A stretch of 39,764 nt of DNA from a virus, in the IMG/VR virus record IMGVR_UViG_3300033564_000224; one strand, written 5' to 3'. The notes under the pieces were generated by a model. That model did not search any database, had not been told where the DNA came from, and saw only the letters and a list, made by a program, of their open reading frames with translations. The position numbers and the translations under genes were made by a program. Position 1 is the first letter of the stretch; each line of letters opens with the position of its first letter. Positions 2,809-39,764 of this stretch are shown one piece after another.

Positions 2809-3642
2809 TTATGCTGTTGTAAAGTTCACGACCGTATCAGCCAAAGACTGACCGAACACATCCACTACACCTGGCACGATCACCAAATGCTCAGTTGCCG
2901 CGCCCATATTGCTGGACGGGTTGAGTGTGACCACCTTACGCGCCGAATCAATGCTACGAGCCACCGCCACGGGCACACCCGCCGCAGTGGTCAAAATGAT
3001 TCCATTCTCAGCCCCAACTTTCAGCGCATTGCTAAAGGTCAAGACCGTATTCACGCTCACCACCACAGCCGTGGCAGCATCCGCAGGCACAGAACTCAAT
3101 GTAAATGCGGGAGCCGAGGCAGTTGCACCAGGCAATGCAGTGGCGGTTTCATTGGCTACCAATTCATAGGCTTTGCCGCCAACTTTCACGCCCGCAAATT
3201 CAGCCTCAAGCATGAAGAACTCACCGCGCTTGAAAGAACCTTTTGGTGAACCGGTCAATTTGATCTTCATCAGTTTGACATGCACATCATCGCCCACATC
3301 GCCCAGTGACTTGCCATAGGCTTTGAAATACGGGAAGGTGACTGAATCACCTGCCAGAGTTGCCACCTCATTGGGCGTGGAACCTGAAACGCCATACGAG
3401 TGACCGGTCATCAGGGCATACGCATCGAGCGAAATACCGCCTGCCTTGAACTTGCCCTTCACGCCCAGCGGCTGGGTGACGATTCCCTGCAATTCATCAT
3501 TGCCGAAAAACTCACCGCTCACCACAGTCTCTTCAAACTCCAACTCTAACGCGGCTGGTAACGAAATCGCAGTCACGCCATCATAAGAGACCACCACGAT
3601 CTCTTTCAGCCCAAAAGGCTTATTGTCTTCACCTGTAGCCAT
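2809..3642 (-). CDS. major tail protein with C-terminal Ig-like domain
   Basis: 277 aa. The N-terminal part resembles siphovirus tail-tube proteins. The C-terminal ~95 aa (SSVPADAATAVVVSVNTVLTFSNAL...VTLNP...VIVPGVVDVFGQSL) fits a bacterial Ig-like domain pattern. Confidence 0.7.
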   Translation of the reverse strand: MATGEDNKPFGLKEIVVVSYDGVTAISLPAALELEFEETVVSGEFFGNDELQGIVTQPLGVKGKFKAGGISLDAYALMTGHSYGVSGSTPNEVATLAGDSVTFPYFKAYGKSLGDVGDDVHVKLMKIKLTGSPKGSFKRGEFFMLEAEFAGVKVGGKAYELVANETATALPGATASAPAFTLSSVPADAATAVVVSVNTVLTFSNALKVGAENGIILTTAAGVPVAVARSIDSARKVVTLNPSSNMGAATEHLVIVPGVVDVFGQSLADTVVNFTTA

Positions 3643-3716
3643 ATTATTTCTCCTTGAAAAGTTATGTCATTACGAGGAGCGGAGCGACGAAGCAATCTCC
3701 ACTCACCAATTACCAA

Positions 3717-4130
3717 TTACCGAAGTCTTACAGCCACAAACCTCAGCGACCCCAGCGCACAATCCAACGCCGTGTCCCGCTGTTGACTCACACTCACGTC
3801 ATAGGTCAACTCCCAAACGCCCGTCCCAACCTGGGCATCATTCAAAAGGTTGTACGCCATCACCATTGCGCTTGCGATGTTGGCATATCCCTGCCGCTCA
3901 TAAAAATAGATGGTCAGCGGAGTTTGCACACTGCGCAAAAAGGGACCGCGCTTCGTTTCCACCCCCAGCTTGATCAGAGCCGAAGGCTTGATCTCTCTGT
4001 TAGTGTCAAATGCCGCCGCCGTATTTTGGCGCGAAATCTCTTCCACATCGCAAAAAATACCGCCGGTCAAAATCGCCATCAACGGGGCATTCGCCTGCAA
4101 AACGGTTTTTATCTCACTGGAAAGAGTCAT
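3717..4130 (-). CDS. tail completion / tail terminator-like protein (DUF3168-like), start re-assigned
   Basis: MTLSSEIKTVLQANAPLMAILTGGIF... has an N-terminus typical of this family. It sits just before the major tail gene. The ATG at 4130 overlaps the upstream small-ORF stop (ATGA). Confidence 0.55.
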   Translation of the reverse strand: MTLSSEIKTVLQANAPLMAILTGGIFCDVEEISRQNTAAAFDTNREIKPSALIKLGVETKRGPFLRSVQTPLTIYFYERQGYANIASAMVMAYNLLNDAQVGTGVWELTYDVSVSQQRDTALDCALGSLRFVAVRLR

Positions 4131-4216
4131 CTCACCACCACGATCAAAGCGATCACCAACGCCCAAAACAAAAAAGCCTCTGGCAAAATAAACAAACAAC
4201 CTTCTGCAAATTTCAT
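4127..4216 (-). CDS. possible 29-aa hydrophobic peptide
   Basis: MKFAEGCLFILPEAFLFWALVIALIVVVR, with AAGGA 8 nt upstream and its stop overlapping the next ATG (ATGA). Confidence 0.25.
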   Translation of the reverse strand: MKFAEGCLFILPEAFLFWALVIALIVVVR

Positions 4217-5410: not shown

Positions 5411-6703
5411 GATGCTCAACCCTTTCAGGTTATTGGCAAACTGCGTGCTATCCATACCGTCACCGCTCATAATCTCAAGGTCTACATCACGCAAATAGCT
5501 CGCCAGAATGAGTTGAATGGTTTCTTCCTTCACACCCAAAATCCGCAGGCGTGAAGCGGCATCTGCCAGATCGCGCAGGTCAGTGGGTGAAAGGCTCTTT
5601 GCCTTGCGCCAGATGATCTTATATTTCACATTCGCCGGATAAATGCCGTGCAGCATCCACTCACGCTCGATCAACGGCTGAATGATTTGTACAGTTGCCC
5701 ACTCACGCCCCTGGTTGAGTGTCTCTTCATACGCTTCTTTTTTCTCGCCTAAAATATCGCGGTTCAGATCGGCGCCATACGCCATCAATTCCATCGGCAC
5801 ATCCGAAGCCGTGAATATGGTCCCGATGTGATGCTGTACATCACCAATCTTGTCAATATTTCCATCGCCCTGGTGTACTGTCAGCGAAGACGCCTTATTG
5901 CTGAAAAAATCAATCACCGCCGCCAGTTTGCCCAGCGCGGCTTTATTGTTTTCCTTGTACGTTTCCACATCCGCGGCATTGCCTTCGATTACATGTTGAC
6001 GCAACTGCGCCCCCCCGATCTTGCGCCGCACGGCTACATTCAATTCGCCGTCTTCCACATAGCGGAAGTGTTTGCGCGCGCTCTGCATCATCGGGCGTCC
6101 ATAGCGGCTTTCTTCATCGTGGTTCCAGCGCGCATGGATCAATTTCCATTCAGGAAACCACAGCGCATCTTTGGGAACATCCATACCGTAGAAATTATCG
6201 TCACCCATCCAGAAAGCGCGGTTCGCGCTATCAAACCGATCCGCAGTGTTTGAATTGCGGTGCATTCGCATCGTGGGTTTGCGTGTCACACTCGCCACCT
6301 GATAGATGGAGTTCGTCACCTGTGCGGGCGTCACCTCAAGAAACGAATCCCCATCGCGCATCGAAAGTCTCAGCCAATCTTCCAACGCTTGATTCAAGTG
6401 CAAACGTTCCTGCAAAGCCGAAACCACCTCGCTCGCCTGCGTGTTATCCGTCTTCAGCACAAACCCGCCGCGCAATAGATCGCGGGCATACATGCGGTGC
6501 ATCTTCTCAACCCGCGGATCACCGTCATACATGGCTCTGCAATCCTTGATGACAGACAGACGGTCACGCTCCACCTTGAAACGCGAATACACATCCTCAG
6601 TAATCACCGGTGCCGGGCTGGATGTCATTGCGAGCGCACTCTGCGAAGCAATCTCTGCATTTGGGTTCATAAACGCTCTAAAGCGATCTGATAATGTTGG
6701 CAT
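5408..6703 (-). CDS. portal protein
   Basis: 431 aa. Size, the MuF gene immediately downstream, and general portal-like sequence character support the call. No exact family was assigned. Confidence 0.65.
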   Translation of the reverse strand: MPTLSDRFRAFMNPNAEIASQSALAMTSSPAPVITEDVYSRFKVERDRLSVIKDCRAMYDGDPRVEKMHRMYARDLLRGGFVLKTDNTQASEVVSALQERLHLNQALEDWLRLSMRDGDSFLEVTPAQVTNSIYQVASVTRKPTMRMHRNSNTADRFDSANRAFWMGDDNFYGMDVPKDALWFPEWKLIHARWNHDEESRYGRPMMQSARKHFRYVEDGELNVAVRRKIGGAQLRQHVIEGNAADVETYKENNKAALGKLAAVIDFFSNKASSLTVHQGDGNIDKIGDVQHHIGTIFTASDVPMELMAYGADLNRDILGEKKEAYEETLNQGREWATVQIIQPLIEREWMLHGIYPANVKYKIIWRKAKSLSPTDLRDLADAASRLRILGVKEETIQLILASYLRDVDLEIMSGDGMDSTQFANNLKGLSI

Positions 6704-8384: not shown

Positions 8385-10961
8385 TTAGGCTTGGATCTTC
8401 ACGTAAGCGCCCTTGCCGCCAATCGGGGCGAGAGAGCCGTTGTATTCTTCAGAGTAGTACTGTTCACCGGCAATGATCTTGCCGTTGCTGTAAATCGGGT
8501 AAGGACCCTTGACGGTCATCGGCTGGAAGACGCGGTGCATTACCAATTCGCGGTTCATGACCAACGCCCAGCCTTCGCGCATCTGAGTGGATGCGAACAC
8601 CGGCAAACCCTTCACACTGCCTGCAAATCCGGCAGAGTTGAGCACTGCATTGGAAAATCCCTGAACCTTGAAACCATCCCAATTGCTGAGAAGGTCCGCA
8701 TTGGTCACGCTCATCAAAATGCCGGTCGGTTCGTAATAACGGTTGGCAACCAACACTTTAGCGCTGCCAAGTTTTTCGACAAAACTGGCAATCGTATCGG
8801 CTGAAATATCATAGGTGCCGCCGCTGTTGCTTGCCACACCCAATGCAGCCGCCAAACCTTTCTCGATCAAAGCCTTGTCAATGTTGAGGCGTGTCTGACG
8901 GATGATGTTCGCCATGGTGCGAGCTACGGCGTCCCAGCCGAGTTGTGAACGGCTAAAGACAATCGCTTCACTGGAGATGTAATCAGCCAGGCGTAAAGCG
9001 GTCGCTTCAAGTGTCTGATAGCTGAGTGTCACTTTGGCGCGTTCAATTTCGGCATTCTCGCCCTTGGCAATTGCGTTATAGCTGTAATCCACAAGCAGAT
9101 CATTGGCGTCAATTGCGCCAGCGGCTAAAGCCTTGATCTTGCCCAATTCGTAATCGATCACGAAGTCAGTGCCTTCCACGTAGGTGGTGCCTGCGGGGTT
9201 GCTGGTGACAACGACAGTGCCGGGAGTAACATACGCATGAGCCAGCGCGTACCAGGTGCTTTCTGCGCCCGCAGTAACCTCTTCATCGGTGATGGCTACG
9301 GTATAGCCAGTTTCGCCGGTGAACGCCTCAAAATAAATGCGCTCAGATTGTGAGTTCATCATGCCCACATCGAACAGATTGGCAGCCACCAAATTGGGGA
9401 ATGCCTCAGCGATGATCGCGCGGCTGACCGAATACGGCAGGTTCAAATCAGTGGTCAATTCGGCTTCGTTGAACAGGCGGGCTTCGTTGATCAGTTTGCC
9501 TTTGTTCTGTTCGTCAAAACGAGCCAGCAATTGAGCGGTGAAAACACCAGCGCGGCTTTCTGCGCGCAAGTTGAGTTCAGTCTTCGAGCGCATTTCATTC
9601 TTGCGCAGGGATTCGGTGATCTCAAACGAAGCGCGTGCGAATTCGGGCGTGCCGGTCTCACGTTCGAGAACATCACCCAAAACCACGATGCCTTTCTTTT
9701 CATCGAAACCCATACCAACCAAAGCGCCTTTCGCGGCGAGCTTGCCGTATTCAGCGCGTTTGCTCTCGGTGAATTTCTTCACGGCATCAACGTCTTTCAG
9801 TTCAGCCGCTTTGAGCGCATCCACAAACGACTCATTCAAATCCTTGCCGAAAGGCAGGTCTTTGGTCGCTTCGGTAATGGCAACTTCAACAGCCGCCTTG
9901 CGCTGAGATTCCACCAATTGAGCCTTGGCAGTTTCGCCTTCAGCGATCATCTTCTGGGCTTCCTGCAATTGCTTGGCAAGATCAGCCTTTTCGTTTTGTA
10001 CTTTTTCTAAAAGTTCGTCAGACATTTCATCATCTCCATGTGATTGATTGATTGATTCGATTAGCGCGGCTGAATTCTCAAAGGATGGCTCCAGCACCAG
10101 GTCAAATCCTGTAATATGCAGTTCGCTCACTTCAAAAATCTTATCGCCGCTTTCAGTAACATTCTTGCCGTCACCATAACCGCGCAGACTCACGCCTGGC
10201 ATCACGCCGCCTTCCATCAAAGTCAGGATGTCCTTGCCTTTGGATGTTTCCAGCACGCGACCGATCACGTCTACGCGCTGACCGTTGAAAGTGACATCTT
10301 CCCACTTCACAACCGTTTCCAAAAAGCTAGCACGCCCGCCCTTGTCAGACGGATGTTCCGTCTCACCAAGAACCTGCACCGCCATGCCTTGCCCGTTGCT
10401 CTCATGCAGATGACCGCGTAATTCAGCGACCGCCGCAGAGATAACATTTGCAGAATATCGGCGACGATTGCCATTGACAATCCCCGCCGTCATTGCTCCT
10501 TCAATAATGATGCGCTTTTTTCCAGATTCGCTTTCTTCCAAAGCCACACGCGCATTCAATCGCTCTTCAAATTTCTTGCCGCGTTTCTTGCCGCTAACCA
10601 AAGCGCGCTCCCCTAACTGGGAGGATGTCATCATGCTTGCCGAGAGGGGCGCGGCAGGTTGATAACTCAACTCGACCTTTTCCCATAGATCACGTGTCTG
10701 GAAAACATAATCAGGACCTTCCGCGCCTTCTGTTTTCGGCGCATAAGTCACTTTCCAATATTCATCAGTCTTCAACGCCGAAAGCGAACCATATTCAGAA
10801 ACGATCACATGATCGGCAAAGATTTCATTGACGTAATACTCATCCCCGTTTTCATAAGGGAATTGTTTTCTGAAAGCCTCACGGATTTCGCTCATGGTGT
10901 AATCCATCGAACCTTTCACCAACTCTTCCAACGCTGTACCTTTATCAATTTTGTTAGCCAT
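8385..10961 (-). CDS. fused prohead protease-like / coiled-coil scaffold / HK97-fold major capsid polyprotein (858 aa)
   Basis: Residues ~150-300 (IIIEGAMTAGIVNGNRRRYS...VLGETEHPSD...GVSLRGYG) resemble prohead proteases. Residues ~310-420 are E/K/A-rich and coiled-coil-like. The C-terminal ~400 aa look like a major capsid protein. No separate protease, scaffold or capsid gene is present. Confidence 0.65.
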   Translation of the reverse strand: MANKIDKGTALEELVKGSMDYTMSEIREAFRKQFPYENGDEYYVNEIFADHVIVSEYGSLSALKTDEYWKVTYAPKTEGAEGPDYVFQTRDLWEKVELSYQPAAPLSASMMTSSQLGERALVSGKKRGKKFEERLNARVALEESESGKKRIIIEGAMTAGIVNGNRRRYSANVISAAVAELRGHLHESNGQGMAVQVLGETEHPSDKGGRASFLETVVKWEDVTFNGQRVDVIGRVLETSKGKDILTLMEGGVMPGVSLRGYGDGKNVTESGDKIFEVSELHITGFDLVLEPSFENSAALIESINQSHGDDEMSDELLEKVQNEKADLAKQLQEAQKMIAEGETAKAQLVESQRKAAVEVAITEATKDLPFGKDLNESFVDALKAAELKDVDAVKKFTESKRAEYGKLAAKGALVGMGFDEKKGIVVLGDVLERETGTPEFARASFEITESLRKNEMRSKTELNLRAESRAGVFTAQLLARFDEQNKGKLINEARLFNEAELTTDLNLPYSVSRAIIAEAFPNLVAANLFDVGMMNSQSERIYFEAFTGETGYTVAITDEEVTAGAESTWYALAHAYVTPGTVVVTSNPAGTTYVEGTDFVIDYELGKIKALAAGAIDANDLLVDYSYNAIAKGENAEIERAKVTLSYQTLEATALRLADYISSEAIVFSRSQLGWDAVARTMANIIRQTRLNIDKALIEKGLAAALGVASNSGGTYDISADTIASFVEKLGSAKVLVANRYYEPTGILMSVTNADLLSNWDGFKVQGFSNAVLNSAGFAGSVKGLPVFASTQMREGWALVMNRELVMHRVFQPMTVKGPYPIYSNGKIIAGEQYYSEEYNGSLAPIGGKGAYVKIQA

Positions 10962-14115: not shown

Positions 14116-14163
14116 TTGAAAAACGATAGCGCCCGATGCTGACCTAAGTCAACATCGGGCGCT
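14116..14163 (-). terminator. rho-independent terminator downstream of the cassette array
   Basis: Minus strand: AGCGCCCGATGTTGAC TTAG GTCAGCATCGGGCGCT, then ATCGTTTTTC. The single non-Watson-Crick pair is G.U on the minus strand only. Confidence 0.75.
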
Positions 14164-14295: not shown

Positions 14296-14420
14296 GTCTA
14301 ACGGTTTGCGTTAGTGGTGATGGGTGAGAACCAAACCACCACGAACGGGATAATTTCAAAGTGTGGATGATGCCTGCAAACGGGGAGCATACCCATCATC
14401 CACTGCGCGCTTTGTTCGGC
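14296..14420 (-). repeat. attC-like site 10 (125 bp)
   Basis: Minus strand: R'' GCCGAAC...GTGG(A)TGATGGGT / ACCCATCACCAC stem...TAACGCAAACC, R' GTTAGAC. Confidence 0.75.
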
Positions 14421-14425
14421 GGCGT

Positions 14426-14872
14426 TTATCTTCCGATGCGTATAATTAGCATTAGGAAAATAGAAAATATAACCACGCACCCCACAATTGCGCCTGCGCC
14501 AATGTTTACCCACACCCATGCCGCCACCAATATTCCAACTGCCAGAAATAGCATTCCAGCGATTGAAGCAATAGTACCGCTCTTGTATTCTTCCGCCTCG
14601 CGGCGATGGTCGTAGGCTCTCAAATCTTTCGAGGCTTGTGTGCGCTCTCGGACGCTCTTATGGATTTCGGCATTGTCGCCTCTGCGATTCCGTATCCAAT
14701 TACGCCACGACTCATTATTTTCGCGTGCCGAAGCAATACCCTTGAGGGATCGCTTGATGTAGTTTCTTTGGTCAAACTGCTCCATACTATCCCAATTTGC
14801 GGGCTGTTCAATCGTGTGCATACAGCCGTTATCTTCATCCCACATTGTGACAGTTTCGGTTTTTTTACTCAT
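14426..14872 (-). CDS. cassette 10 ORF: C-terminally membrane-anchored protein (148 aa)
   Basis: ORF track. C-terminal hydrophobic stretch IASIAGMLFLAVGILVAAWVWVNIGAGAIVGCVVIFSIFLMLII. Its stop lies 5 nt before R''. Confidence 0.65.
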   Translation of the reverse strand: MSKKTETVTMWDEDNGCMHTIEQPANWDSMEQFDQRNYIKRSLKGIASARENNESWRNWIRNRRGDNAEIHKSVRERTQASKDLRAYDHRREAEEYKSGTIASIAGMLFLAVGILVAAWVWVNIGAGAIVGCVVIFSIFLMLIIRIGR

Positions 14873-14904
14873 AGTTTTCTCGCTTCTCGGCTGGCAAGGT
14901 AGCC

Positions 14905-15013
14905 GCCGAACGGACTGCGTTAGCCGCGTGTGCGACCAACCATAACCTTATTTTTTGGATGATACTTCTTTACGCCACAGCCTTGCACACGTCGGGTGAA
15001 CGCTTTGTTAGGT
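14905..15013 (-). repeat. attC-like site 9 (109 bp)
   Basis: R'' ACCTAAC...CCG(A)CGTGTGC / GCACACGCGG stem...CTAACGCAGTCC, R' GTTCGGC. Confidence 0.7.
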
Positions 15014-15183
15014 GCGCTCATAATTGTGGATGGTTCTATTTTTCCATCAGACGGGAAATCCACGTAGAGCGTACCATCATCATACGAGAAAACTTTAGCA
15101 CACGGAACGTGCCACAAATAGCCACGCGATTGTATTGTTTCCAGATTCTTATTTTCTTTACCACACGATAGACATTTTTCCAT
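14920..15183 (-). CDS. cassette 9 ORF: small Cys-containing (zinc-ribbon-like) protein whose 3' end reads through attC
   Basis: MEKCLSCGKEN...WHVPCAK. The stop is the conserved TAA of the attC 3' arm. Confidence 0.55.
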   Translation of the reverse strand: MEKCLSCGKENKNLETIQSRGYLWHVPCAKVFSYDDGTLYVDFPSDGKIEPSTIMSAPNKAFTRRVQGCGVKKYHPKNKVMVGRTRG

Positions 15184-15188
15184 GAAGC

Positions 15189-15301
15189 ACCTAATGATTT
15201 TCTTTACCCGCTCACGGCAGGCTCGGCATTTTCAACGAACACGACATCAGGCAGGCAATGAGCCGCCGTCTGGAGGGAGTCGGGTGCAAGCTGTGTTAAC
15301 C
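15189..15301 (-). repeat. attC-like site 8 (113 bp, degenerate R')
   Basis: R'' GGTTAAC ACA GCTT G CACCCG A C...GCGGGTAAAGAAAATC, R' ATTAGGT. Confidence 0.6.
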
Positions 15302-15491
15302 CGCTTTCTTGCTGGCTCACGCACTTTGCCAATAAAGCACCAAGACGGTAAACCTTGAAACTTCGATTTTCAACGCCGATCTTGTGACCAAGTACCAATT
15401 GTTTTGCGCTCATCGTTAGCATAATTTGTATGTTTGCTATATTATCTTTGTCGTCATAGAAAATCACTACGCTATAACTTTCTTTTGGCAT
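15204..15491 (-). CDS. cassette 8 ORF: hypothetical protein (95 aa, start re-assigned)
   Basis: ATG at 15491 after GGAAGGAGAG. The C-terminal ~35 aa are encoded by attC 8. Confidence 0.6.
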   Translation of the reverse strand: MPKESYSVVIFYDDKDNIANIQIMLTMSAKQLVLGHKIGVENRSFKVYRLGALLAKCVSQQESGLTQLAPDSLQTAAHCLPDVVFVENAEPAVSG

Positions 15492-15514
15492 ATTCTCTCC
15501 TTCCAAAAAGTGAG

Positions 15515-15606
15515 GGCTAACGGTTTGCTTTACTGGATTGGGGCGTTATAACCTCGGCAATAAAACGCCACGCCCGCCCCAAGTCCAGTGCAAGCGATTG
15601 TTAGAC
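15515..15606 (-). repeat. attC-like site 7 (92 bp)
   Basis: R'' GTCTAAC...R' GTTAGCC. It is 90/92 identical to site 6. Confidence 0.8.
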
Positions 15607-15951
15607 CCCGCCCCGTTCTGACGGGGCTTTGATTACACCGCCGTACTTTTCTATCAATTTCTGGCAGAACCCTTCGCTGATTTTTCCGCGCCAAATCTCT
15701 TGGGCGGGAACATCAATAACATATTTCTTTTTTCTCTCGACAGTTATCGCTCCGTTGCCTTCTATGCGTTCTCCGCGCAAATAGTAACTTCCATCATCTA
15801 CATTCGCTTCGTTTTCATAATGACCGACGGCTTGCGAGTGCTCGACAACTACGCCATCAGTGTAGATGGTTACTATATGGATTTCTTTCCCGTCGGAGTC
15901 AGGGAAAAAACGAAATGTTTCTCCAAACGTGAACTTCTCAACTTTTGCCAT
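15601..15951 (-). CDS. cassette 7 ORF: hypothetical protein (116 aa), paralog of the cassette 1 ORF
   Basis: 102/116 aa identical to 18613..18963. SD AAAGGAGAG. The stop TAA lies inside R'' (GTCTAAC). Confidence 0.75.
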   Translation of the reverse strand: MAKVEKFTFGETFRFFPDSDGKEIHIVTIYTDGVVVEHSQAVGHYENEANVDDGSYYLRGERIEGNGAITVERKKKYVIDVPAQEIWRGKISEGFCQKLIEKYGGVIKAPSERGGV

Positions 15952-15976
15952 TGCAACTCTCCTTTTACAAGATAAG

Positions 15977-16068
15977 GTCTAACGGTTTGCTTTACTGGCT
16001 TGGGGCGTTATAACCTCGGCAATAAAACGCCACGCCCGCCCCAAGTCCAGTGCAAGCGATTGTTAGAC
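15977..16068 (-). repeat. attC-like site 6 (92 bp)
   Basis: GTCTAAC AATC GCTT G CACTGG A CTTGGGGCG...CGCCCCAAG CCAGTA AAGC AAACC GTTAGAC. Confidence 0.8.
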
Positions 16069-16422
16069 CCCGCCCTGTTGAGCGGGAACGACTGCCAGTA
16101 GTGCGGCTCGACATATTGCAAGCGGTGCGGTTTCTGCGTTTGCTTCAAAACTCTCGAATGCATTGAAGATAACGCATACCCATCCGCGAATAGATGTACG
16201 TAAATCTACGTCATGCAATTCGTCAACAGACCCCATTTTTTCAACCACGTCCCACACACTTGTTATATTTTTTGAGTACGGATAAACACTTTCCCGACTT
16301 CCCAAAACATAAATAAACGGTGCGCCACGCTCCCAAACTATCTCACGCTTAAAAACATGCTCATCAATAAGCGCGTCCATTTTTCGCCCTGCGGGCATAT
16401 TCAAAATTTCATCTTTGGTCAT
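16063..16422 (-). CDS. cassette 6 ORF: hypothetical phage-type small protein (119 aa, start re-assigned)
   Basis: ATG at 16422 after GAAGGAGAAGG. MPAGRKMDALIDEHVF...YSKNITSVWDVVEKM...APLAICRAALLAV loosely recalls small phage accessory proteins. The tracked N-terminal extension is attC 5 sequence. Confidence 0.65.
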   Translation of the reverse strand: MTKDEILNMPAGRKMDALIDEHVFKREIVWERGAPFIYVLGSRESVYPYSKNITSVWDVVEKMGSVDELHDVDLRTSIRGWVCVIFNAFESFEANAETAPLAICRAALLAVVPAQQGGV

Positions 16423-16443
16423 AACCTTCTCCTTCACGAAGGG

Positions 16444-16554
16444 GTCTAACGGTTTGCGTAACCCGCAGGAGCGAGAACGCAAGACCACAAAATTATTTAC
16501 CAGAACGCTTTTTCGGCGTGACGTTGCTCCTGTCGGGTTCACGCTGTGTTAGGC
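16444..16554 (-). repeat. attC-like site 5 (111 bp)
   Basis: R'' GCCTAAC ACA GCGT G AACCCG A CAGGAGC...GCTCCTG CGGGTT ACGC AAACC, R' GTTAGAC. Confidence 0.8.
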
Positions 16555-16556
16555 AA

Positions 16557-17435
16557 CTAGCCATTAGACTCGCCTTCAACTGGCGAAGTAATTACATAAT
16601 CTTTCATCACAATGCCTTTTTCAATACTTCCGCGCACTTGGCTATTCCACCAATACATATCTTTATATTTTCCGAAAAGACCTTCTCCTTTTGAAAAATC
16701 CTTGAAATGTCCACGACAGATATGCAGTGATTGTTTCAATCCTAAACTTTCGGATTTTCCTTCCTCACGCAAAACTTTTTTCATCGGTTCAATTTCGAGA
16801 ACCTTATACTTAATTTTTGATGAATTCCTATTGCGTTTTTCATTTTTTTTATCATCTGATTTACGCGGAATAATTTCTACATTTTTACAATGTAGAAATG
16901 AAATTGCTAAAAGTGCTGGGTAAACATTCACAAATAATTCATCATATATTTTATGAACTCTTTCCGTTGCATTTATTTCTTCTGGAATAATTGCCATGTA
17001 TTGAACTTCTTCGCCATATTTAGCAATCCTTCCGTCTTTTTCGATTGCAAGCCCATACATAAAATAATCATTATTTACGCGCTCTGAATTTCCTAAAAAC
17101 AATGACATTAATAATCCCCACTTCGCCCCGCTCTCTGTAATGTCAACTGAACTAAATAAAACTCCAACACGAGTTCCGCTTGAATCGCGTTTATGATTTT
17201 CTCCATCGAAATGAAGCACTCCAGACGGCATTGAATATTCCATCCACATATTTTCAAATGGAGGCGCAAGGTTTGGAAAATCTTTTTCAAAATCCCATTC
17301 ATCTTGTTCACTTTTCCAAAAGTATTCAGCGACATTATCAATTAATATGATTTCCGAATTATCAATTTTAGAAATCATATCTTTAGTCAGAATACTGTTT
17401 TTGTTCTTAAGAATATTTCTATAAAGCGTATTCAT
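16557..17435 (-). CDS. cassette 5 ORF: hypothetical protein (292 aa), visibly AT-rich
   Basis: ORF track with SD AAAGGA. K/N/E/I-rich composition unlike the rest of the genome. C-terminal motif HICRGHFKDF...GLFGKY...WWNSQVRG was not recognised. Confidence 0.7.
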   Translation of the reverse strand: MNTLYRNILKNKNSILTKDMISKIDNSEIILIDNVAEYFWKSEQDEWDFEKDFPNLAPPFENMWMEYSMPSGVLHFDGENHKRDSSGTRVGVLFSSVDITESGAKWGLLMSLFLGNSERVNNDYFMYGLAIEKDGRIAKYGEEVQYMAIIPEEINATERVHKIYDELFVNVYPALLAISFLHCKNVEIIPRKSDDKKNEKRNRNSSKIKYKVLEIEPMKKVLREEGKSESLGLKQSLHICRGHFKDFSKGEGLFGKYKDMYWWNSQVRGSIEKGIVMKDYVITSPVEGESNG

Positions 17436-17453
17436 AATTTATCCTTTTGGGTT

Positions 17454-17541
17454 GCCTAACTTTTGCGTTACCCGCGCCGCGCCTGTAACCTGTCCAAAAA
17501 TGGCGGACGTGGCGCGGCGTCGGGTGCACGCCTTGTTAGAC
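17454..17541 (-). repeat. attC-like site 4 (88 bp)
   Basis: R'' GTCTAAC AAG GCGT G CACCCG A CGCCGCGCC...GGCGCGGCG CGGGTA ACGC AAAA, R' GTTAGGC. Confidence 0.8.
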
Positions 17542-17712
17542 CGCGCTCTCAATCACAAAGGTGTTGAAGTACGCAACAACCTTTTCCATCTCGGTAATTG
17601 CTACGGCATAACGCCGTGCTTCTTCGGTGCGCTCGGCTGGCTTTGCTTCACGCAACTTCATCAGCGCGAGTTTCAGAGATAGCATAACTTCTTCGTTTAC
17701 TGTTGTTTCCAT
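17536..17712 (-). CDS. cassette 4 ORF: 58-aa helical protein (below the ORF-track cutoff)
   Basis: Own translation: METTVNEEVMLSLKLALMKLREAKPAERTEEARRYAVAITEMEKVVAYFNTFVIESAV. SD AAGGA 7 nt upstream. The stop TAA lies inside R''. Confidence 0.55.
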   Translation of the reverse strand: METTVNEEVMLSLKLALMKLREAKPAERTEEARRYAVAITEMEKVVAYFNTFVIESAV

Positions 17713-17750
17713 TTTATTTTCCTTTACCGACTTCCTTTTGCAAGGGAGCG

Positions 17751-17841
17751 GCCTAACGGCTTGCGTTACTGGCTTGCGCCACTAACTTGATTGCTTTCAG
17801 GCGCGACGGCTGGCGCAAGTCCAGTGCACGCGGTGTTGGAA
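17751..17841 (-). repeat. attC-like site 3 (91 bp)
   Basis: R'' TTCCAAC ACC GCGT G CACTGG A CTTGCGCCA...TGGCGCAAG CCAGTA ACGC AAGCC, R' GTTAGGC. Confidence 0.8.
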
Positions 17842-18191
17842 GGCGTAGATGGATTTATGTATTCAAATTCGATACGTGTGACTTCAGCGGATGACGGCAC
17901 ACCCATTTCACGCATGAACATATCAATAAACCATTCCACGCTTTGACCTTCAAAACCTTCACGAATAACATCATCAGGAGTGATGTCGTAAAGCCTTTCA
18001 CGGCGGACATTTACCACGCGGATTTTTGCAAGGCGTTCAATCTTTTCACCTTGCTTCAAACCCATGCACTTTACACAGGCATTGAGTTCATCGCCTTTCT
18101 TCAACATCAGCCAACCCAAACGGCGAGTGACTGTCTTTTGTTGCTTTCGTACCTGCTCAGTTGTGAGCATGAATGAGATATTTCTAGCCAT
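17766..18191 (-). CDS. cassette 3 ORF: ASCH-domain-like protein (141 aa) with an attC-encoded tail
   Basis: ISFMLTTEQVRKQQKTVTRRLGW..LKKGDEL matches the ASCH N-terminal pattern. The last ~28 aa are translated from attC 3. Confidence 0.6.
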   Translation of the reverse strand: MARNISFMLTTEQVRKQQKTVTRRLGWLMLKKGDELNACVKCMGLKQGEKIERLAKIRVVNVRRERLYDITPDDVIREGFEGQSVEWFIDMFMREMGVPSSAEVTRIEFEYINPSTPSNTACTGLAPAVAPESNQVSGASQ

Positions 18192-18211
18192 AAGACACCT
18201 TTGCTTTAGCC

Positions 18212-18339
18212 TTCCAACGGTTTGCTTTACCAGCGCTGGGTGGGCGCGGATTCGGCTTGGGATGTGGATAATGCTGAGGCTTGTAAACTGCTTGTAGAAA
18301 CCGCCGAATCCCCAGCGTCGGGTGCAAGCTGTGTTGGGC
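18212..18339 (-). repeat. attC-like site 2 (128 bp)
   Basis: R'' GCCCAAC ACA GCTT G CACCCG A CGCTGGG...CCCAGCG CTGGTA AAGC AAACC, R' GTTGGAA. Confidence 0.75.
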
Positions 18340-18493
18340 GTTGTTTATCTTTACGAGCGGCTTCTATTGCCTTCAAGCGCGTCGCTGTTTCTGCAATGCA
18401 ATGACCTACGCCTGCACTAGACCACTCGTAAACATGATACATGCCATCAGCCCATTGAAAAATACGATAACCATTTGGAGCGCGTTTTGTCAT
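18227..18493 (-). CDS. cassette 2 ORF: hypothetical protein (88 aa, start re-assigned) with an attC-encoded tail
   Basis: ATG at 18493 after AAGGA. The C-terminal ~37 aa (RPTQLAPDAGDSAVS...) are encoded by attC 2. Confidence 0.6.
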   Translation of the reverse strand: MTKRAPNGYRIFQWADGMYHVYEWSSAGVGHCIAETATRLKAIEAARKDKQRPTQLAPDAGDSAVSTSSLQASALSTSQAESAPTQRW

Positions 18494-18526
18494 TTTCAAT
18501 TCCTTTATTGTGTTGAGCAAGGAAAC

Positions 18527-18618
18527 GCCCAACGGTTTGCGTTAGTTGCGTGGGGCGGCGTTACCTTCGCTTTCAGTACGCCAGCCCGCCCCACGTCAAC
18601 TGCACGCGATTGTTAGAC
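18527..18618 (-). repeat. attC-like site 1 (92 bp)
   Basis: R'' GTCTAAC AATC GCGT G CAGTTG A CGTGGGGCGG...CCGCCCCACG CAACTA ACGC AAACC, R' GTTGGGC. Confidence 0.8.
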
Positions 18619-18963
18619 CCCGCCCCGTTCTGACGGGGCTTTGATTACGCGGCCATACTTTGCTATAAGTTTTTGGCAGAAACTTTCACTGATTTGTCCG
18701 CGCCAAATTTCTTTGGGCGGGACATCCACAATGTATTTCTTTTTCCTTTCGACAGTTGTTCTTCCGTTACCTTCTATGCGTTCTCCGCGCAAATAGTAAC
18801 TTCCATCATCTACATTCACTTCGTTTTCATAATGACCGACGGCTTGCGTGTGTTCGACAACTACGCCATCAGTGTAGATGGTTACCACATGAATTTCTTT
18901 CCCGTTTGAGTCAGGGAAAAAACGGAACGTTTCCCCAAATGTGAACTTTTCAACTTTTGCCAT
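18613..18963 (-). CDS. cassette 1 ORF: hypothetical protein (116 aa), paralog of the cassette 7 ORF
   Basis: ORF track. Its leader TTAGACCTTATCTTGTAAAAGGAGAGTTGCA is identical to cassette 7. Confidence 0.75.
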   Translation of the reverse strand: MAKVEKFTFGETFRFFPDSNGKEIHVVTIYTDGVVVEHTQAVGHYENEVNVDDGSYYLRGERIEGNGRTTVERKKKYIVDVPPKEIWRGQISESFCQKLIAKYGRVIKAPSERGGV

Positions 18964-18988
18964 TGCAACTCTCCTTTTACAAGATAAG

Positions 18989-18995
18989 GTCTAAC
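18989..18995 (-). other. first core recombination site (GTTAGAC) at the head of the array, in an attI-like position
   Basis: Minus strand: TGA G TTAGAC. The core site directly follows the stop of the intI remnant. Identity with the cassette 7 copy starts exactly at this G. Confidence 0.65.
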
Positions 18996-19181
18996 TCATG
19001 ATTCTACTAGCGCACGCCGTATAACAGGTGACGCCAATTGACGATCCAACGGTGAACGAACTGCCGCGCCCCCAAGTAAATGTACATAGATCATTGTTGT
19101 CTCAAGTTTCTGATGTCCGAGCAACTCCTGAATAGTCCGAATATCCGTTCCCGATTGATATAAATGCGTCGCGTACTTCAT
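18996..19181 (-). pseudogene. intI: 5'-truncated integron integrase (intI-like tyrosine recombinase) remnant, C-terminal ~60 codons only
   Basis: [45 protein letters not shown] matches box II of tyrosine recombinases (LLGH...Y) plus the IntI-typical VRSPLD ending. An in-frame TGA lies 2 codons upstream of the first Met. Confidence 0.75.
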
Positions 19182-19375: not shown

Positions 19376-19404
19376 ATTTTACAAGCTACGATTCTCAATG
19401 TCAA
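19376..19404 (-). promoter_or_regulatory. near-consensus sigma70 promoter pointing into the intI remnant and cassette array
   Basis: Minus strand: TTGACA (19404-19399), a 17-nt spacer, then TAAAAT (19381-19376). Confidence 0.6.
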
Positions 19405-19418
19405 TAGGAATACAAACG

Positions 19419-19952
19419 CTATCTGCGCCACGTAGCCGCGCGAAGCTCGGGAGCAACATACTTCAGCCCGCACAGTTGAAAAAAATCTTCCTCCTCCAAA
19501 ATATGCACTGGGCTATTATCTCGGCTGCTCCAAACCGCGCCGTCTTTTACATACACCGTATCAGGCAGCGCCCCGCCAATCGCCCGATGCGAAACCATCC
19601 ACTGGCTGAAATCCGCAGGACCCGTGCGGATCATATATTGCACCCCCCAATCCGCTGGGGGAGTCACAATAAACAAATCCAAACTGATCCCGCTATACAA
19701 AGCAATTTTTTTATATTTATGCCCGTTCTTTTCAACCTTGCCCAAGTTGGAAAAATCAAACACATCCAAAGAATGGTCTTCCAGCACCGCACCAAACATA
19801 TCCGTTTGCATAAAAGGCACTGCCACGATCTCAATATCTTTCACCTCCGGCTTCCCTCGCCGAATAGAACCCGCGATCTCAATCCGCTTGCAAACGTCCC
19901 CCAATGTAGAAACCAATTGATTAGCCAACTGCAAAGCCTCAGTGTGTTCCAC
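19419..19952 (-). CDS. minimal Pol-beta/PolX-like nucleotidyltransferase (177 aa)
   Basis: IAGSIRRGKPEVKDIEIVAV fits the GS-x-RRGK...D-x-D/E palm motif of family X polymerases. A later ISLDLF supplies a third acidic residue. Confidence 0.6.
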   Translation of the reverse strand: MEHTEALQLANQLVSTLGDVCKRIEIAGSIRRGKPEVKDIEIVAVPFMQTDMFGAVLEDHSLDVFDFSNLGKVEKNGHKYKKIALYSGISLDLFIVTPPADWGVQYMIRTGPADFSQWMVSHRAIGGALPDTVYVKDGAVWSSRDNSPVHILEEEDFFQLCGLKYVAPELRAATWRR

Positions 19953-28230: not shown

Positions 28231-29169
28231 CTAGACTTCGACGGCTGACTGCAATTCGTCAAACGATGAACGCAGGTATTTGCGGGTTGTCTCTATGCTG
28301 TTGTGACCTAGCAGGTCACGGATGATCTCAATCGGACGCCCGGCACGCTCGAGAGTTTTGGCGAAGGTGAAGCGCAGCCAATGTGGACTCATATCGGGGA
28401 TGCCGATTTGAGCGCCGGTGTAGGTGACGATGCGCTCGATCTGACGGGTTGAGAGGCGCGGCGAGTTTTTGCCTCTAAACAATGCAGTAGCAGCAGAAGT
28501 TCCGCATAGTTCACTTATGGCATTTCGCGCTTCGATGGAGAGGGGAACGATGCGCTCTTTGTTGCCTTTGCCATTACGGACGCGGACTGAGCCACTGCGC
28601 TCGTTGATTACGATGTCTGATAAATCAAGGGCTGCTACTTCTGCGACGCGCAGTCCTGAGCGAACCATGAGGGTGATGAGTGCCTGGGCACGTTTGGCTG
28701 TTGTGTTTTCAAAGAGGGTAGCTGCGCCGCGGACGTTGCGCTCGATCTGTTGCATGAGGTCGTGGATCTCTTTCTCGGAGAGGGAGCGATATGCCGAGGG
28801 ACGAATCCCCTGCTCTTTGTTTTTTAGACCCACTGTCAGATTAGTGTAGGATGCGCCGCAGGTGGTCTCTATCCAATTGCAAAATATCTGCAATGCCCAG
28901 AGGCGTGAGTTCCATGTGTTGGGAGCGACGCGCACTACATCGAGCGAGTATTTTTGATATTGGCGTAGGGCATAGTTGGTGATGACATCAGGCGTGAATG
29001 GCTGGTTGAAGGTGTCCTCGAACCATTTGGTGAAGACGTTGATGTGCTGATTGGCGGTGCTGATGGTGGCGCTGGCTGTGTAGGTTTCTTGCAGATGCGC
29101 GGTGAAGGCATCTTGCCAGGTGGTGAGACGGGTGAGGGTCAGAGGTTGCGCGGTTTGAAGGTTATTCAT
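28231..29169 (-). CDS. Xer/phage-integrase family tyrosine recombinase (not IntI-type)
   Basis: SGLRVAEVAAL, HWLRFTFA and LLGHNSIETTRKY supply the R...HxxR...H...Y catalytic set. ATG at 29169 is coupled (ATGA) to the upstream gene; an alternative start lies at 29184. Confidence 0.8.
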   Translation of the reverse strand: MNNLQTAQPLTLTRLTTWQDAFTAHLQETYTASATISTANQHINVFTKWFEDTFNQPFTPDVITNYALRQYQKYSLDVVRVAPNTWNSRLWALQIFCNWIETTCGASYTNLTVGLKNKEQGIRPSAYRSLSEKEIHDLMQQIERNVRGAATLFENTTAKRAQALITLMVRSGLRVAEVAALDLSDIVINERSGSVRVRNGKGNKERIVPLSIEARNAISELCGTSAATALFRGKNSPRLSTRQIERIVTYTGAQIGIPDMSPHWLRFTFAKTLERAGRPIEIIRDLLGHNSIETTRKYLRSSFDELQSAVEV

Positions 29170-29612
29170 TTTGAGCCGCTCCATATCCCAGAAGTATCAT
29201 TGTTCATACTGTCAAGAATATCGGCGATGCGTTTGAGTTGAGCGGCTTGCAATAGTGTGGCGCGGATTTGTGTCTGCATGAGTTCGATCTTTACCTGTTC
29301 CGATAACTCGCCAATCTGTGCGACATAGCGGTCTTGGCTTGATACCATGCGTTCAATTTCATTCCATGTGTTGATAGCCGAAACAATATCGGCATCTATT
29401 ACGCCGGTTTGTTCGCGGACGAGTGCGGCGTGCGCGTTTTTGAGATCCTGTTGTTTCGCGCTCCACTGAGCCTCGGTCTGCCTGCGGAAGTTGAGAAGTT
29501 CTTCGGCGTGCGCGCCAAAACCTTCGGCGTCTTCAAGATCAAAGCAGGGGTCATACAACCAAGCGGCTTTCAGCTTTTCAATTTCTGAGGGTGTTCTTTT
29601 TTTATCGGTCAT
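29166..29612 (-). CDS. hypothetical protein (148 aa)
   Basis: ORF track. No family recognised. Confidence 0.5.
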   Translation of the reverse strand: MTDKKRTPSEIEKLKAAWLYDPCFDLEDAEGFGAHAEELLNFRRQTEAQWSAKQQDLKNAHAALVREQTGVIDADIVSAINTWNEIERMVSSQDRYVAQIGELSEQVKIELMQTQIRATLLQAAQLKRIADILDSMNNDTSGIWSGSK

Positions 29613-32054: not shown

Positions 32055-32629
32055 TGGATAATCTTGAAGCTGGCATAGCAGCATTCAAAGCGGGCAAACG
32101 CGATGAAGCGCGAAGCCTATTGATAGCCGCCATGAAAGACGCTCCCAATAATGAAAACGTTTGGGGATGGCTATATCAAGTATCCAACAATGACATTGAG
32201 CGAATTCAGGCGTTGAGAAAAGTTGTTGCGATCAATCCGCAGAATGTAAAGGCAAAAGAATTGCTGGACAAACTGCTTGCTCCGCCGCAGTTTGAGCCTG
32301 TCCGCAATAAGAAAAAAAACAACATACTTATATTTAGCGTGGTGTTCGTCAGCCTGTGTGTGATGTGCGCCGTGGCTGCGCTGGGTATCAAAGCCAGTGA
32401 AAAAACGAACGCGAATACAAATACAGTAGATCAATACATGCAGGAATATGGTGGAAACCCAGATGTGTACACTGAAATTATTGCACTCACAGACTGCGCC
32501 ATGCTCCAAATAAAGTTTGACACCGCCGCAGACAATCTCCATGCGCCAGGCACACAGCAATATCATTGGAGCCAGGGGTATATGGCTGCATCCGACGCGC
32601 GCATGAAGGATATTGGTTGTTATAAATAA
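32051..32629 (+). CDS. TPR-like single-pass membrane protein in the lysogeny operon
   Basis: N-terminal TPR-like AGIAAFKAGKRDEARSLL...NENVWGWLY, then the transmembrane segment ILIFSVVFVSLCVMCAVAALGI. Confidence 0.5.
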   Translation: MMDNLEAGIAAFKAGKRDEARSLLIAAMKDAPNNENVWGWLYQVSNNDIERIQALRKVVAINPQNVKAKELLDKLLAPPQFEPVRNKKKNNILIFSVVFVSLCVMCAVAALGIKASEKTNANTNTVDQYMQEYGGNPDVYTEIIALTDCAMLQIKFDTAADNLHAPGTQQYHWSQGYMAASDARMKDIGCYK

Positions 32630-34293
32630 TGCCATCAGATAAATTTCGCCTAGAACCCCCGCCCAGCGCCCTGCCACCCGGCTCCACCGTTTGGGCGTAT
32701 CTGCGCGATTCGGGCGGACCTACGCAGGACAGATCGGTGCAACAACAGCGCGAAAGTATTATGGAATTTTGCGCACACCATGGATTGATCCTCACCCATG
32801 CACCGTTTGAAGATATTCACAAATCGGGCGGTTCCACTCAGGGACGCAATGATTTTGATTATATGATGTCCCTTTCCAGTTCAGCCGATCAACGCCCCGA
32901 TGGTTTGCTCATTTGGAATTTTGCACGCTTCTCACGCGGTGGCGCATGGGACTCGCAGTTTTACACATCCACATTGCGCACGCGCAATATTGTCATCCAC
33001 TCACTGACCGATAAAATCCCAGAGGGCGAGTTTGGACCTGTCATTGAGACCATCATCCACATTGCCAACAAACAAAAAAAAGATGAAGCCTCAATGGGCG
33101 CATGGCGCGGTCTGCGGCATAACGTAAAACAGCGAGCCGTCCCGGGCAATCCTCCGCTCGGATTTGTGCGCACGCCCATTCAGATCACATCGCTTGATGG
33201 AGTTACACGCACCGCCCACCGTTGGGACCCTGACCCAGATTTCAAACTCCGCATCAATAAAGCGTTTCGCATGAAGGCGCAGGACAAAAGCCTTTCACAG
33301 ATCCACGCCGAAACGCAACTTTATAAATCCATCAACTCGTATGTCACTTTTTTTATCAACCCCATTTATATTGGCATCTTGAATTTTGGTGATCTGGTCA
33401 TCGAAGATTATTGCCCGCCCACTATTCCGCGCAAGACATGGGACAAAGTGCAAACTATCACCTCCGCCGCGAAAGAGCGCAACCACCTGCACAGTAAAAC
33501 CGTACATCCGCGGCGCGTGGTCAGCGTGTACCTTTTATCATCGATTGCCAAATGCGCGCGTTGTGGCGGATCGCTGAATGGTCAAACCACCAAACAACCC
33601 TACGGCGAAGATTACCGCCAATATATCTGCGCGACTGCAAAAAATAAAAAGACCTGCACCGCCAAAGCCATCCCCGCCAAAGTGCTTGAAAAACTTGTCA
33701 TTGATGGAATGTGTAATTTTTTTGATGACCCCCAAAACCTGATAAACGTCCTCACGAAATTTCAATCCACCCACGCCAACCATCAAAATATAGTGGATGA
33801 AGAGCGCGCATCCATCACGCCCCAGCTTGCTACCGTCCGAAAGAAATTGACTCATCTGATAGATGTCCTCACCGAAAAACCCGCATCCTCAACATTACTC
33901 AAAAAACTAACCTCGCTCGAAGAGGAAGAATCGATACTTATTAGTAAACTGGCACAACTCAAAAACAAAAACCATGCCCCCATCAGCATCCCCACTTTAG
34001 AGCAAGCCCGCACAGCCACCCAGCGCATACAGGAAGACCTACGCTCCAGCGACCCCGCCAAAGTCCGCCAAGTGCTAATTGGCATTATTGACGGCATCAA
34101 AGCAGACCGCATTGGAAAGCACATAGTCGCCAAAGTGGATTATTATCATGTGCCTGCTGTAAAAAAAAAGAATAGTATAGTAAACTATGTCTATATCACT
34201 CCCCCCCGTGGGGGCACCATTTATAGACATAGTTTATCGTTTGAGACAACCATCCCAAACAGTGGACGCCCAAACAAAAAGCCTCTCAAATGA
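32629..34293 (+). CDS. int: large serine recombinase (phage integrase)
   Basis: 554 aa. N-terminal resolvase-type domain (VWAYLRDSGG..Q), recombinase domain, Cys cluster CARCGGSL...YICATAKNKKTC, and a C-terminal coiled coil. Confidence 0.8.
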   Translation: MPSDKFRLEPPPSALPPGSTVWAYLRDSGGPTQDRSVQQQRESIMEFCAHHGLILTHAPFEDIHKSGGSTQGRNDFDYMMSLSSSADQRPDGLLIWNFARFSRGGAWDSQFYTSTLRTRNIVIHSLTDKIPEGEFGPVIETIIHIANKQKKDEASMGAWRGLRHNVKQRAVPGNPPLGFVRTPIQITSLDGVTRTAHRWDPDPDFKLRINKAFRMKAQDKSLSQIHAETQLYKSINSYVTFFINPIYIGILNFGDLVIEDYCPPTIPRKTWDKVQTITSAAKERNHLHSKTVHPRRVVSVYLLSSIAKCARCGGSLNGQTTKQPYGEDYRQYICATAKNKKTCTAKAIPAKVLEKLVIDGMCNFFDDPQNLINVLTKFQSTHANHQNIVDEERASITPQLATVRKKLTHLIDVLTEKPASSTLLKKLTSLEEEESILISKLAQLKNKNHAPISIPTLEQARTATQRIQEDLRSSDPAKVRQVLIGIIDGIKADRIGKHIVAKVDYYHVPAVKKKNSIVNYVYITPPRGGTIYRHSLSFETTIPNSGRPNKKPLK

Positions 34294-39180: not shown

Positions 39181-39764
39181 TAGAGTGCTCCTGCAACGTT
39201 CTTCGCAAAACGATTGATTTTTGAATCCATCATCCGATCTACATCGCGCAGGGTCAGCCCATTGCTCAAGTTGACCGTGTTACTGGTGGATTGTTGCGTG
39301 GTCATATTGCTGACGGGTTTCGCCATCATGCGCGCGATCACATTCGGGTTGACGGAATCTTTCAGCCCCAGTTTGTAACCATCGCCGCTATCAATGCCCA
39401 GCTTGAAAAATTTACGTGAAGGTGAATGTGAATCCAGAGCCTTGCGCATGGCTTCCAATGCCGCCGCGCCTGCCTGCGCCGCCGCCATAATAATGGATGG
39501 GATGCCGCCCAATATTCCGCTGGCAAGCCCCACCAGCATATTCTTACCAACCTGCCCCCAGTTGATATTTTTGAACATGTTTTTCATTTTATCTACGATC
39601 TGGGCTATGTAATACCCAAGCAGAAACCATGCCTGTTTCAACGTGTCGGTGATGCCCATCCAGTTATTTTTGAATGCCCAATACAGCAATCCCAAAGTAG
39701 CAATAATCAATAAAATAGGACCAACGATCACAAGGATTGAACCCGCTGCGCCTGCAATTGCCGC
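39180..39764 (-). CDS. tail tape measure protein, C-terminal part (continuation of 1..1096 across the circular junction)
   Basis: The frame is continuous: ...AGAAGSILV IVGPILLIIATLG. The tracked M at 39731 is an internal GTG (Val). Hydrophobic segments are typical of tape measure proteins. Confidence 0.85.
   Translation of the reverse strand, partial: AAIAGAAGSILVIVGPILLIIATLGLLYWAFKNNWMGITDTLKQAWFLLGYYIAQIVDKMKNMFKNINWGQVGKNMLVGLASGILGGIPSIIMAAAQAGAAALEAMRKALDSHSPSRKFFKLGIDSGDGYKLGLKDSVNPNVIARMMAKPVSNMTTQQSTSNTVNLSNGLTLRDVDRMMDSKINRFAKNVAGAL

Follow-up and report, generated by a model that had tools for sequence, protein, structure and literature searches.

The virus record IMGVR_UViG_3300033564_000224 of IMG/VR, analysed here over its whole length of 39,764 nt (the window), carries ten repeats at 14296–18618, and the question that this locus raises is whether these are attC sites, the recombination sites of integron cassettes, and whether they can still be recombined. 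An earlier reading of the bare sequence (the sequence-only reading) had described attC-like sites here that share an R box, an unpaired spacer, an L box and two single-base bulges, and all ten were recovered where it had placed them. We are highly confident that 14296–19181 is an integron cassette array with canonical attC sites and a truncated integrase gene (intI), i.e. a cluster of attC sites lacking integron integrases (CALIN) plus ΔintI, in a complete temperate tailed-phage genome. The sites agree with published attC structure in every feature that could be tested except the base of the proximal bulge and the purine and stability bias of the bottom strand, they are accompanied by an insertion footprint at G|TT crossover points, and the array adjoins the remnant of intI.

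Location and architecture of the ten sites

A lineage-specific covariance model built from the ten sites gave 62.8–89.6 bits on the + strand, compared with at most 18.8 bits on the − strand. The sites, with their individual features, are:

14296–14420, + strand: S1, the array's final site, distal to attI; L'' is GCGC and the L box is closed by a G·T wobble; 85.2 bits
14905–15013, + strand: S2, proximal bulge A and one G·G mismatch in stem 1; among the two weakest structures
15189–15301, + strand: S3, R' is ACCTAAT (AAT for AAC), with a T-C mismatch in the L box and an interrupted stem 2; lowest score, 62.8 bits; possibly in decay, judging from its sequence
15515–15606, + strand: S4, identical to S5 at 90 of 92 positions
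15977–16068, + strand: S5, covariance-model match
16444–16554, + strand: S6, the sole site with A-T closing stem 1 instead of a T·G wobble
17454–17541, + strand: S7, 5' spacer of 4 nt
17751–17841, + strand: S8, its cassette (17757–18217) has a counterpart in viral contig L049
18212–18339, + strand: S9, the longest at 128 nt, with one A·G mismatch in stem 1
18527–18618, + strand: S10, belonging to the first cassette, beside attI

Along the + strand each site starts with R' (RYYYAAC), a 5-nt spacer (GGTTT), L' (GCKT) and a 6-nt arm of stem 1 (TACTGG and variants), and continues with stem 2, a variable loop, the return of stem 2, a single T, the 6-nt return of stem 1, a single C, L'' (AMGC), a spacer of 3–4 nt and R'' (GTTRRRY). 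The AAC of the R box is present in nine of the ten sites (AAT in S3) and GTT in all of them; positions C7 and G188 are invariant across 140 related sites. The spacers, 5 nt (4 in S7) opposite 3–4 nt, are unpaired. Sites are 88–128 nt long, and although their central 40–80 nt defy alignment, pairing in stem 2 reaches 94.9%. Eight of the ten are structurally intact, keeping every L-box and stem-1 pair despite differing sequences. The formula of parts in the sequence-only reading, which had followed the window − strand (the cassette top strand), is right in order and components; it fails in detail for S1, which has GCGC rather than GCKT, and for S3, which has AAGA rather than AMGC and AAT rather than AAC.

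A covariance-model search of the 39.7-kb window found no attC beyond these ten. An additional 'site' at 1449–1587, returned by a loose regular expression, was without support from the model and was rejected.

Pairing and covariation

Pairs were counted on a plain MAFFT alignment of the ten sites that was not fitted to any structure. Standard pairs occupy 92.1% of 229 pair cells, against 33.8–38.7% after sliding the 3' partners by 1–3 columns. Double-sided changes occur in 11 of 23 pairs, and the observed covariation score was reached by none of 500 shuffles.

The L box (4 bp, GCKT/AMGC) is 97.5% paired. Its pair 15-116 is G-C in six sites, T-A in four and broken in none, which bears out the proposal that GCTT covaries with AAGC and GCGT with ACGC. 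Stem 1 is 96.7% paired with the T·G wobble counted, and pairs 19-111, 20-110 and 21-109 show 2, 5 and 5 double changes, respectively. These three pairs bear out the covariation of the 6-bp stem that had also been proposed from the sequence; its first pair is C·A on the − strand then read in nine of the ten sites. The distal stems were said to differ in sequence and still to pair, and five of the six stem-2 pairs scored do show double-sided changes. Across 140 distinct related viral sites the combined helix (L box plus both stems) reaches 98.8% pairing, with double changes in 14 of its 16 pairs, in an alignment that was fitted to the covariance model and so leans towards structure.

Bulges and choice of folding strand

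Because all cassette ORFs (open reading frames) lie on the − strand, the + strand is the cassette bottom strand. Two single-base bulges, separated by 6 nt, are found on the 3' arm of this strand in all ten sites, and none on the other arm. The distal bulge is T in 10/10 sites of the window and in 139/140 related sites; the proximal bulge is C in nine of ten (A in S2) and in 126/140 related sites, with G in 11/140. In nine of the ten sites stem 1 starts on the + strand with a T·G wobble, which on the − strand is a C·A mismatch; S6 alone is Watson-Crick here. In the L box and both stems together, the + strand has 10 G·T pairs and the − strand has none. The sequence-only reading could have foundered on covariation without statistical support or on bulges scattered over both arms, and neither was observed; its extra bases do fall on one arm throughout, although the base beside L'', given as G or C, is on the − strand G in nine sites, T in S2 and never C.

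Published attC sites follow a set of bottom-strand rules (Nivina et al., PMC5027507): the core sites are 5'-RYYYAAC-3' (R') and 5'-GTTRRRY-3' (R''), bulges lie opposite the AAC triplet, a bulge within or beside L'' is usually G and the furthest one a conserved T, the spacing from first to last bulge equals a 6-bp stem, and G·T pairs are enriched. The present sites resemble attCaadA7 of class 1 mobile integrons and VCR of Vibrio cholerae in having R and L boxes with an unpaired spacer and a terminal structure that varies, in having bulges only opposite AAC on the bottom strand, a distal T, 6-bp spacing and G·T bias towards the bottom strand, and in having a length within 57–141 nt and a crossover at G|TT.

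The T·G wobble adjoining the proximal bulge is kept in 120/140 related sites and in 9/10 sites of the window (columns 17/178, 179; 15993, 16053 and 16054 in S5). On the top strand the same wobble becomes a C·A mismatch, turning the single bulge into a 2x1 internal loop. This conserved wobble may be an extra strand-discriminating feature of the present type of attC.

Strand asymmetry also bears on whether the hairpins might function at the RNA level, as terminators or attenuators, or be generic palindromes like repetitive extragenic palindromic (REP) sequences or miniature inverted-repeat transposable elements (MITEs), rather than recombination sites. They do lie between co-oriented ORFs and give stable folds (−15 to −28 kcal/mol) on either strand, but the transcript would correspond to the − strand, which has the C·A mismatches, whereas the 10 G·T wobbles all belong to the + strand. 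A terminator-like match was found inside one site alone (S10, 18545–18529, 6-pair stem), the strong one being outside the array (14163–14128). An Rfam scan of the whole window matched no family, a result that is uninformative on attC since Rfam apparently has no attC model. RNA hairpins would also leave unexplained the relation between neighbouring R boxes and the adjacency of IntI in 12 loci, both described below, and we regard this explanation as hardly credible.

Cassette boundaries and insertion footprint

The attC reading, by comparison, predicts a footprint of cassette insertion. Ten cassettes, each with one ORF and 284–1010 bp in length, lie between G|TT crossover points at 14302–18994 on the − strand:

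18533–18994, − strand: cassette 1
18218–18532, − strand: cassette 2
17757–18217, − strand: cassette 3
17460–17756, − strand: cassette 4
16450–17459, − strand: cassette 5
15983–16449, − strand: cassette 6
15521–15982, − strand: cassette 7
15195–15520, − strand: cassette 8
14911–15194, − strand: cassette 9
14302–14910, − strand: cassette 10

Within the same site, R' and R'' are Watson-Crick complementary at 52/70 positions, which is the chance level (54.5±2.4 for random partners). When R'' is paired instead with R' of the upstream neighbour, 67/70 positions are complementary, a value reached by none of 20,000 permutations. Eight of the ten neighbour pairings are perfect (7/7), including that of S10 with the junction box by the integrase remnant, and the last six bases of the upstream R' box are the first six of the downstream site's own cassette. 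Such a match between neighbours would be predicted for cassettes that were formerly circles with an unbroken attC and entered the array by cleavage at G|TT, and it fixes the cassette boundaries.

The S8 cassette has a counterpart of 91.7% identity in L049, which occupies a different position in the array there, and the homology of the two cassettes stops at the cassette boundaries and the conserved parts of attC. The first and seventh cassettes are paralogous, their 116-aa ORFs being 88.6% identical in DNA. The attCs of these two cassettes (S10 and S4) are identical at 65/92 positions, with several stem differences compensated on both arms, while S4 is nearly the same as S5, the attC of a neighbouring, unrelated cassette.

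A 7-bp GC-rich hairpin, GCCCCGTTCTGACGGGGC, is present in identical form at 15610–15627 and 18622–18639, where it abuts R'' of S4 and of S10. It lies within the 3' end of the duplicated 116-aa ORF.

Integrase remnant and attI

Three features on the same strand as the cassettes lie at the start of the first of them or upstream of it:

18989–18995, − strand: attI/first-cassette junction box, GTTAGAC, which abuts the stop codon of intI (GAATCATGA|GTTAGAC) and is complementary at 7/7 positions to R'' of S10
18996–19181, − strand: truncated integron-integrase gene, the C-terminal 61 codons with the region of the catalytic Tyr, co-oriented with the cassettes
19419–19952, − strand: PolX-like nucleotidyltransferase ORF, filling the place of the 5' four-fifths of intI in related phages

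The best family of the remnant is integron integrase (TIGR02249, positions 268–314 of 315; 59.8 bits, cut-off 265), and no integrase-like sequence was found further upstream of it. At the nucleotide level it is 79–81% identical to the 3' ends of full-length intI genes in contigs L086 and L034. The full-length IntI proteins of L034, L086 and L075 score 368–411 bits on the integron-integrase model (cut-off 265), and that of L034 aligns end to end, IntI-specific segment included, with VchIntIA, the integrase from V. cholerae (PDB 2A3V). As intI is reduced to 61 codons, the array is a CALIN, a term defined by at least two co-oriented attC sites with no functional intI nearby and applicable here to ten co-oriented sites in 4.3 kb.

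In four loci (window 18983–19000, L034 ~9880–9905, L086 ~5790–5815 and L075 ~2720–2745), with IntI proteins 60–78% identical, the intI stop codon TGA is followed immediately by a GTTRRRY box (GAATCATGA|GTTAG...). Because the crossover box abuts the stop codon, attI must overlap the last codons of the gene, and in the window we place the attI site within 18996–19181. The first cassette ORF begins ~30 nt past the intI stop codon. In each of the 12 loci that show both, IntI and the cassettes point the same way; in the window the remnant and the ten cassette ORFs are all on the − strand.

A layout like that of the window is seen in L019, which has a PolX-like gene (3551–4198), a truncated intI (3316–3522) and a six-site array, with a different breakpoint. 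The PolX-like proteins of the two are 33% identical and their IntI fragments 59%. The shared layout may go back to one old event or to recurrent replacement.

Comparison with known attC sites and integrons

Several observations weigh against the identification of the locus as an integron array with canonical attC sites. Firstly, the proximal bulge is C, where published sites, including attCaadA7 and VCR, usually have G, and the conserved T·G wobble closing the adjoining stem is a further difference from these two, as is the 3' spacer of 3–4 nt in place of the usual 5–6. Secondly, the bottom strand of the ten sites shows no purine enrichment and no clear stability advantage: fold energies of the + and − strands differ by a mean of −0.29 kcal/mol with no consistent direction, compared with a bottom-strand advantage of −2.12 kcal/mol in attCs of mobile integrons (Nivina et al., PMC5027507). 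Thirdly, the ten-site model detects Vibrio-type attCs weakly, the best hit, on the right strand and inside an array, having 16 bits and E=0.044. Fourthly, S2 and S3 show signs of decay, with stem mismatches in both and loss of the AAC triplet in S3. Finally, the 39.7-kb genome has no intact intI, and its complete tyrosine recombinase (28231–29184) is Xer-like, with 54.9 bits on the integron-integrase model (cut-off 265) in two separate stretches. An altered integrase residue was considered as a match for the C bulge and rejected: the equivalent of W157 is H in L034 IntI but is already R in IntI1, and nothing was inferred from it.

The Xer-like enzyme raises the possibility that the phage's own recombinases act on the sites, the other candidate being a large serine recombinase (32629–34293, 554 aa) that is likewise intact. 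The Xer-like protein fails the integron-integrase model, however, and in related phages a true IntI is encoded directly at the array. Serine recombinases, for their part, act on double-stranded sites of different form. Tyrosine recombinases without the IntI domain were observed near a few attC sites by Cury et al., a precedent of sorts, but were judged by these authors not to be integron integrases. Use of the sites by either enzyme therefore seems very improbable, and we retain the integron array with truncated intI as the reading of this locus.

Integron components in phages were surveyed by Qi et al. (PMC9892861), whose set of 10,705 phage genomes yielded 17 CALINs, one In0 element and three complete integrons; the complete ones were class 1 mosaics or fragments that prophages had taken up from their hosts, and the CALINs illustrated are small, the sole one with a stated size having 3 attC sites. 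No other study of phage-borne integrons was found in a full-text literature search. The present array resembles those CALINs as a cluster of attC sites without integrase in a phage genome, and in cargo, which there is mostly of unknown function or methyltransferases (methyltransferase-like ORFs are present in the L086 array). It differs in its ten cassettes, its intI remnant and its relatives with an intact integron at the same position.

With 'reverse' (inverted-integrase) integrons of Treponema denticola and others, the locus shares an intI pointing in the same direction as the cassettes. For amplicons of the T. denticola type, one table row gives a distance of 271 bp from intI to the first cassette ORF, unlike the crossover box directly after the intI stop and the short distance to the first cassette ORF seen here. 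The platform is, moreover, on a phage, and in the window its intI is truncated.

The anatomy of the sites is thus that of textbook attCs; the array adds a clean and well-documented case to what is known but no new principle, and its setting in a phage is the more notable part. The literature searched portrays integron parts in phages as rare, and for the most part as small or as accidental captures. Four aspects of the present locus go beyond it: the size of an array carried by a complete phage genome, the fixed place of an integron in related phages, an attI that overlaps intI, and the C bulge. The last two offer handles on how integrases read their sites.

Phage genome, relatives and putative hosts

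Positions 1–43 of the window are identical to its last 43 nt (39722–39764), so the assembly is circular, at ~39.7 kb, and the window is probably a complete element. Head and packaging genes (large terminase, TerL; portal; head-morphogenesis proteins; prohead protease fused to a capsid-like protein) are present, as are genes for a major tail protein, a primase, a ParM-like protein and the large serine recombinase. On this gene content, the window is taken as a complete temperate tailed-phage genome containing the array. Megablast of 25 kb against GenBank phages gave a sole match, 745 nt of terminase at 74%, and hence no close cultured relative.

At least nine other contigs have the order ParM, (IntI), attC array, 228-aa protein, TerL, protease/capsid, with TerL 33–67% identical to that of the window. 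Arrays at this same position were found in L086, L034, L041, L038, L020, L085, L083, L049 and L175, and are accompanied by a full-length IntI in L086, L034 and L175. Retention of an intact integron at the same place in relatives suggests that some phages use integrons for their own gene shuffling, sharing cassettes with their hosts.

The ten-site model finds 346 sites in 88 IMG/VR stretches and a further 112 in genome contigs. L175 lies inside a 329-kb Anaerolineales contig and is therefore probably a prophage, pointing to the host clade; the sites confirmed in genome contigs come mainly from Anaerolineae and other Chloroflexota. The huge taxonomic range suggested by 120 pattern hits in genome collections was discarded, as the model confirms about one third of the first 100 loci, mostly Anaerolineae, and the unconfirmed hits are treated as chance matches or mis-binned short contigs. 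Arrays with the same type of attC are present on contigs binned to distant phyla, among them groups of the candidate phyla radiation and one archaeon: L106 and L148 (Saccharibacteria), L127 (Magasanikiibacteriota), L168 (a Woesearchaeota metagenome-assembled genome), L173 (Brocadia) and L188 (Planctomycetaceae). These could be real transfers, misbinned phage contigs or binning errors.

Proposed mechanism and possible current activity of the array

By analogy with known integrons, the cassette bottom strand (window + strand), when single-stranded, would fold into a hairpin, with R'/R'' and L'/L'' as the two boxes bound by integrase and an unpaired spacer (5 nt versus 3–4 nt) between them. The extrahelical proximal C and distal T would identify this strand rather than its complement as the substrate. 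Cleavage by an integron integrase would then fall within the 5' R' box, between its A and C (top strand, G|TT), attC x attC recombination would excise cassettes, and insertion would take place at the attI junction GAATCATGA|GTTAGAC. As the genome is without an intact IntI, recombination now would need IntI in trans, which could be supplied by a host integron or a co-resident phage.

An alternative that accepts the attC sites holds that the array is a dead relic, in which nothing has recombined since truncation of intI and the conserved structure is due to recent ancestry, not to selection that still acts. Of intI, just 61 codons are left, and no other IntI is encoded in the 39.7-kb genome; the AAT and L-box mismatch of S3, and the stem mismatch and atypical bulge of S2, are what a relic would show, and the weakest sites, S1–S3, are clustered at the attI-distal end. 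Decay of S3 and S2 suggests that selection may be relaxed at that end of the array. Conversely, the full set of L-box and stem-1 pairs persists in eight sites of differing sequence, and the attCs of the two paralogous cassettes have diverged by pair changes compensated on both arms while their ORFs remained 88.6% identical. The cassette shared with L049 at 91.7% identity lies at a different array position in that phage. L019 combines the same truncated-intI layout with six sites, so arrays persist after truncation of intI. Contigs of the putative Anaerolineae hosts have attCs of the same type as well as related IntI genes, so that supply in trans is feasible. On this evidence a relic appears possible but rather unlikely. 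For the array as a CALIN with usable sites, the eight intact sites and the cassette shared with another phage make it plausible that recombination can still occur, provided that IntI is supplied in trans.

Beyond the window, the comparisons tip us, by a modest degree, towards a broader reading. A lineage of temperate tailed phages, probably infecting Anaerolineae (Chloroflexota), would carry a native 'reverse' integron at a fixed position between the ParM/replication side and the packaging module, with attI overlapping the last codons of intI and a cassette pool common to phages and hosts, as a platform for exchange of accessory genes. In the window and in L019, intI would have been truncated and replaced by a PolX-like gene, with retention of the attI-bearing 3' end and the array, which would possibly be served in trans.

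Cargo and flanking features

Among the ten cassette proteins, cargo scans identified one Phage_ABA_S domain, two PHROG families of unknown function and one borderline PHROG match, and no known defence family. Two flanking features were found as consensus matches only:

14128–14163, − strand: terminator-like hairpin, 16 pairs followed by a T run, 3' of the last attC
19376–19404, − strand: sigma-70-like promoter match, TTGACA-17-TAAAAT (11/12), directed towards the intI remnant and the array

Together, the candidate promoter and the terminator-like hairpin would frame the array as one transcription unit.

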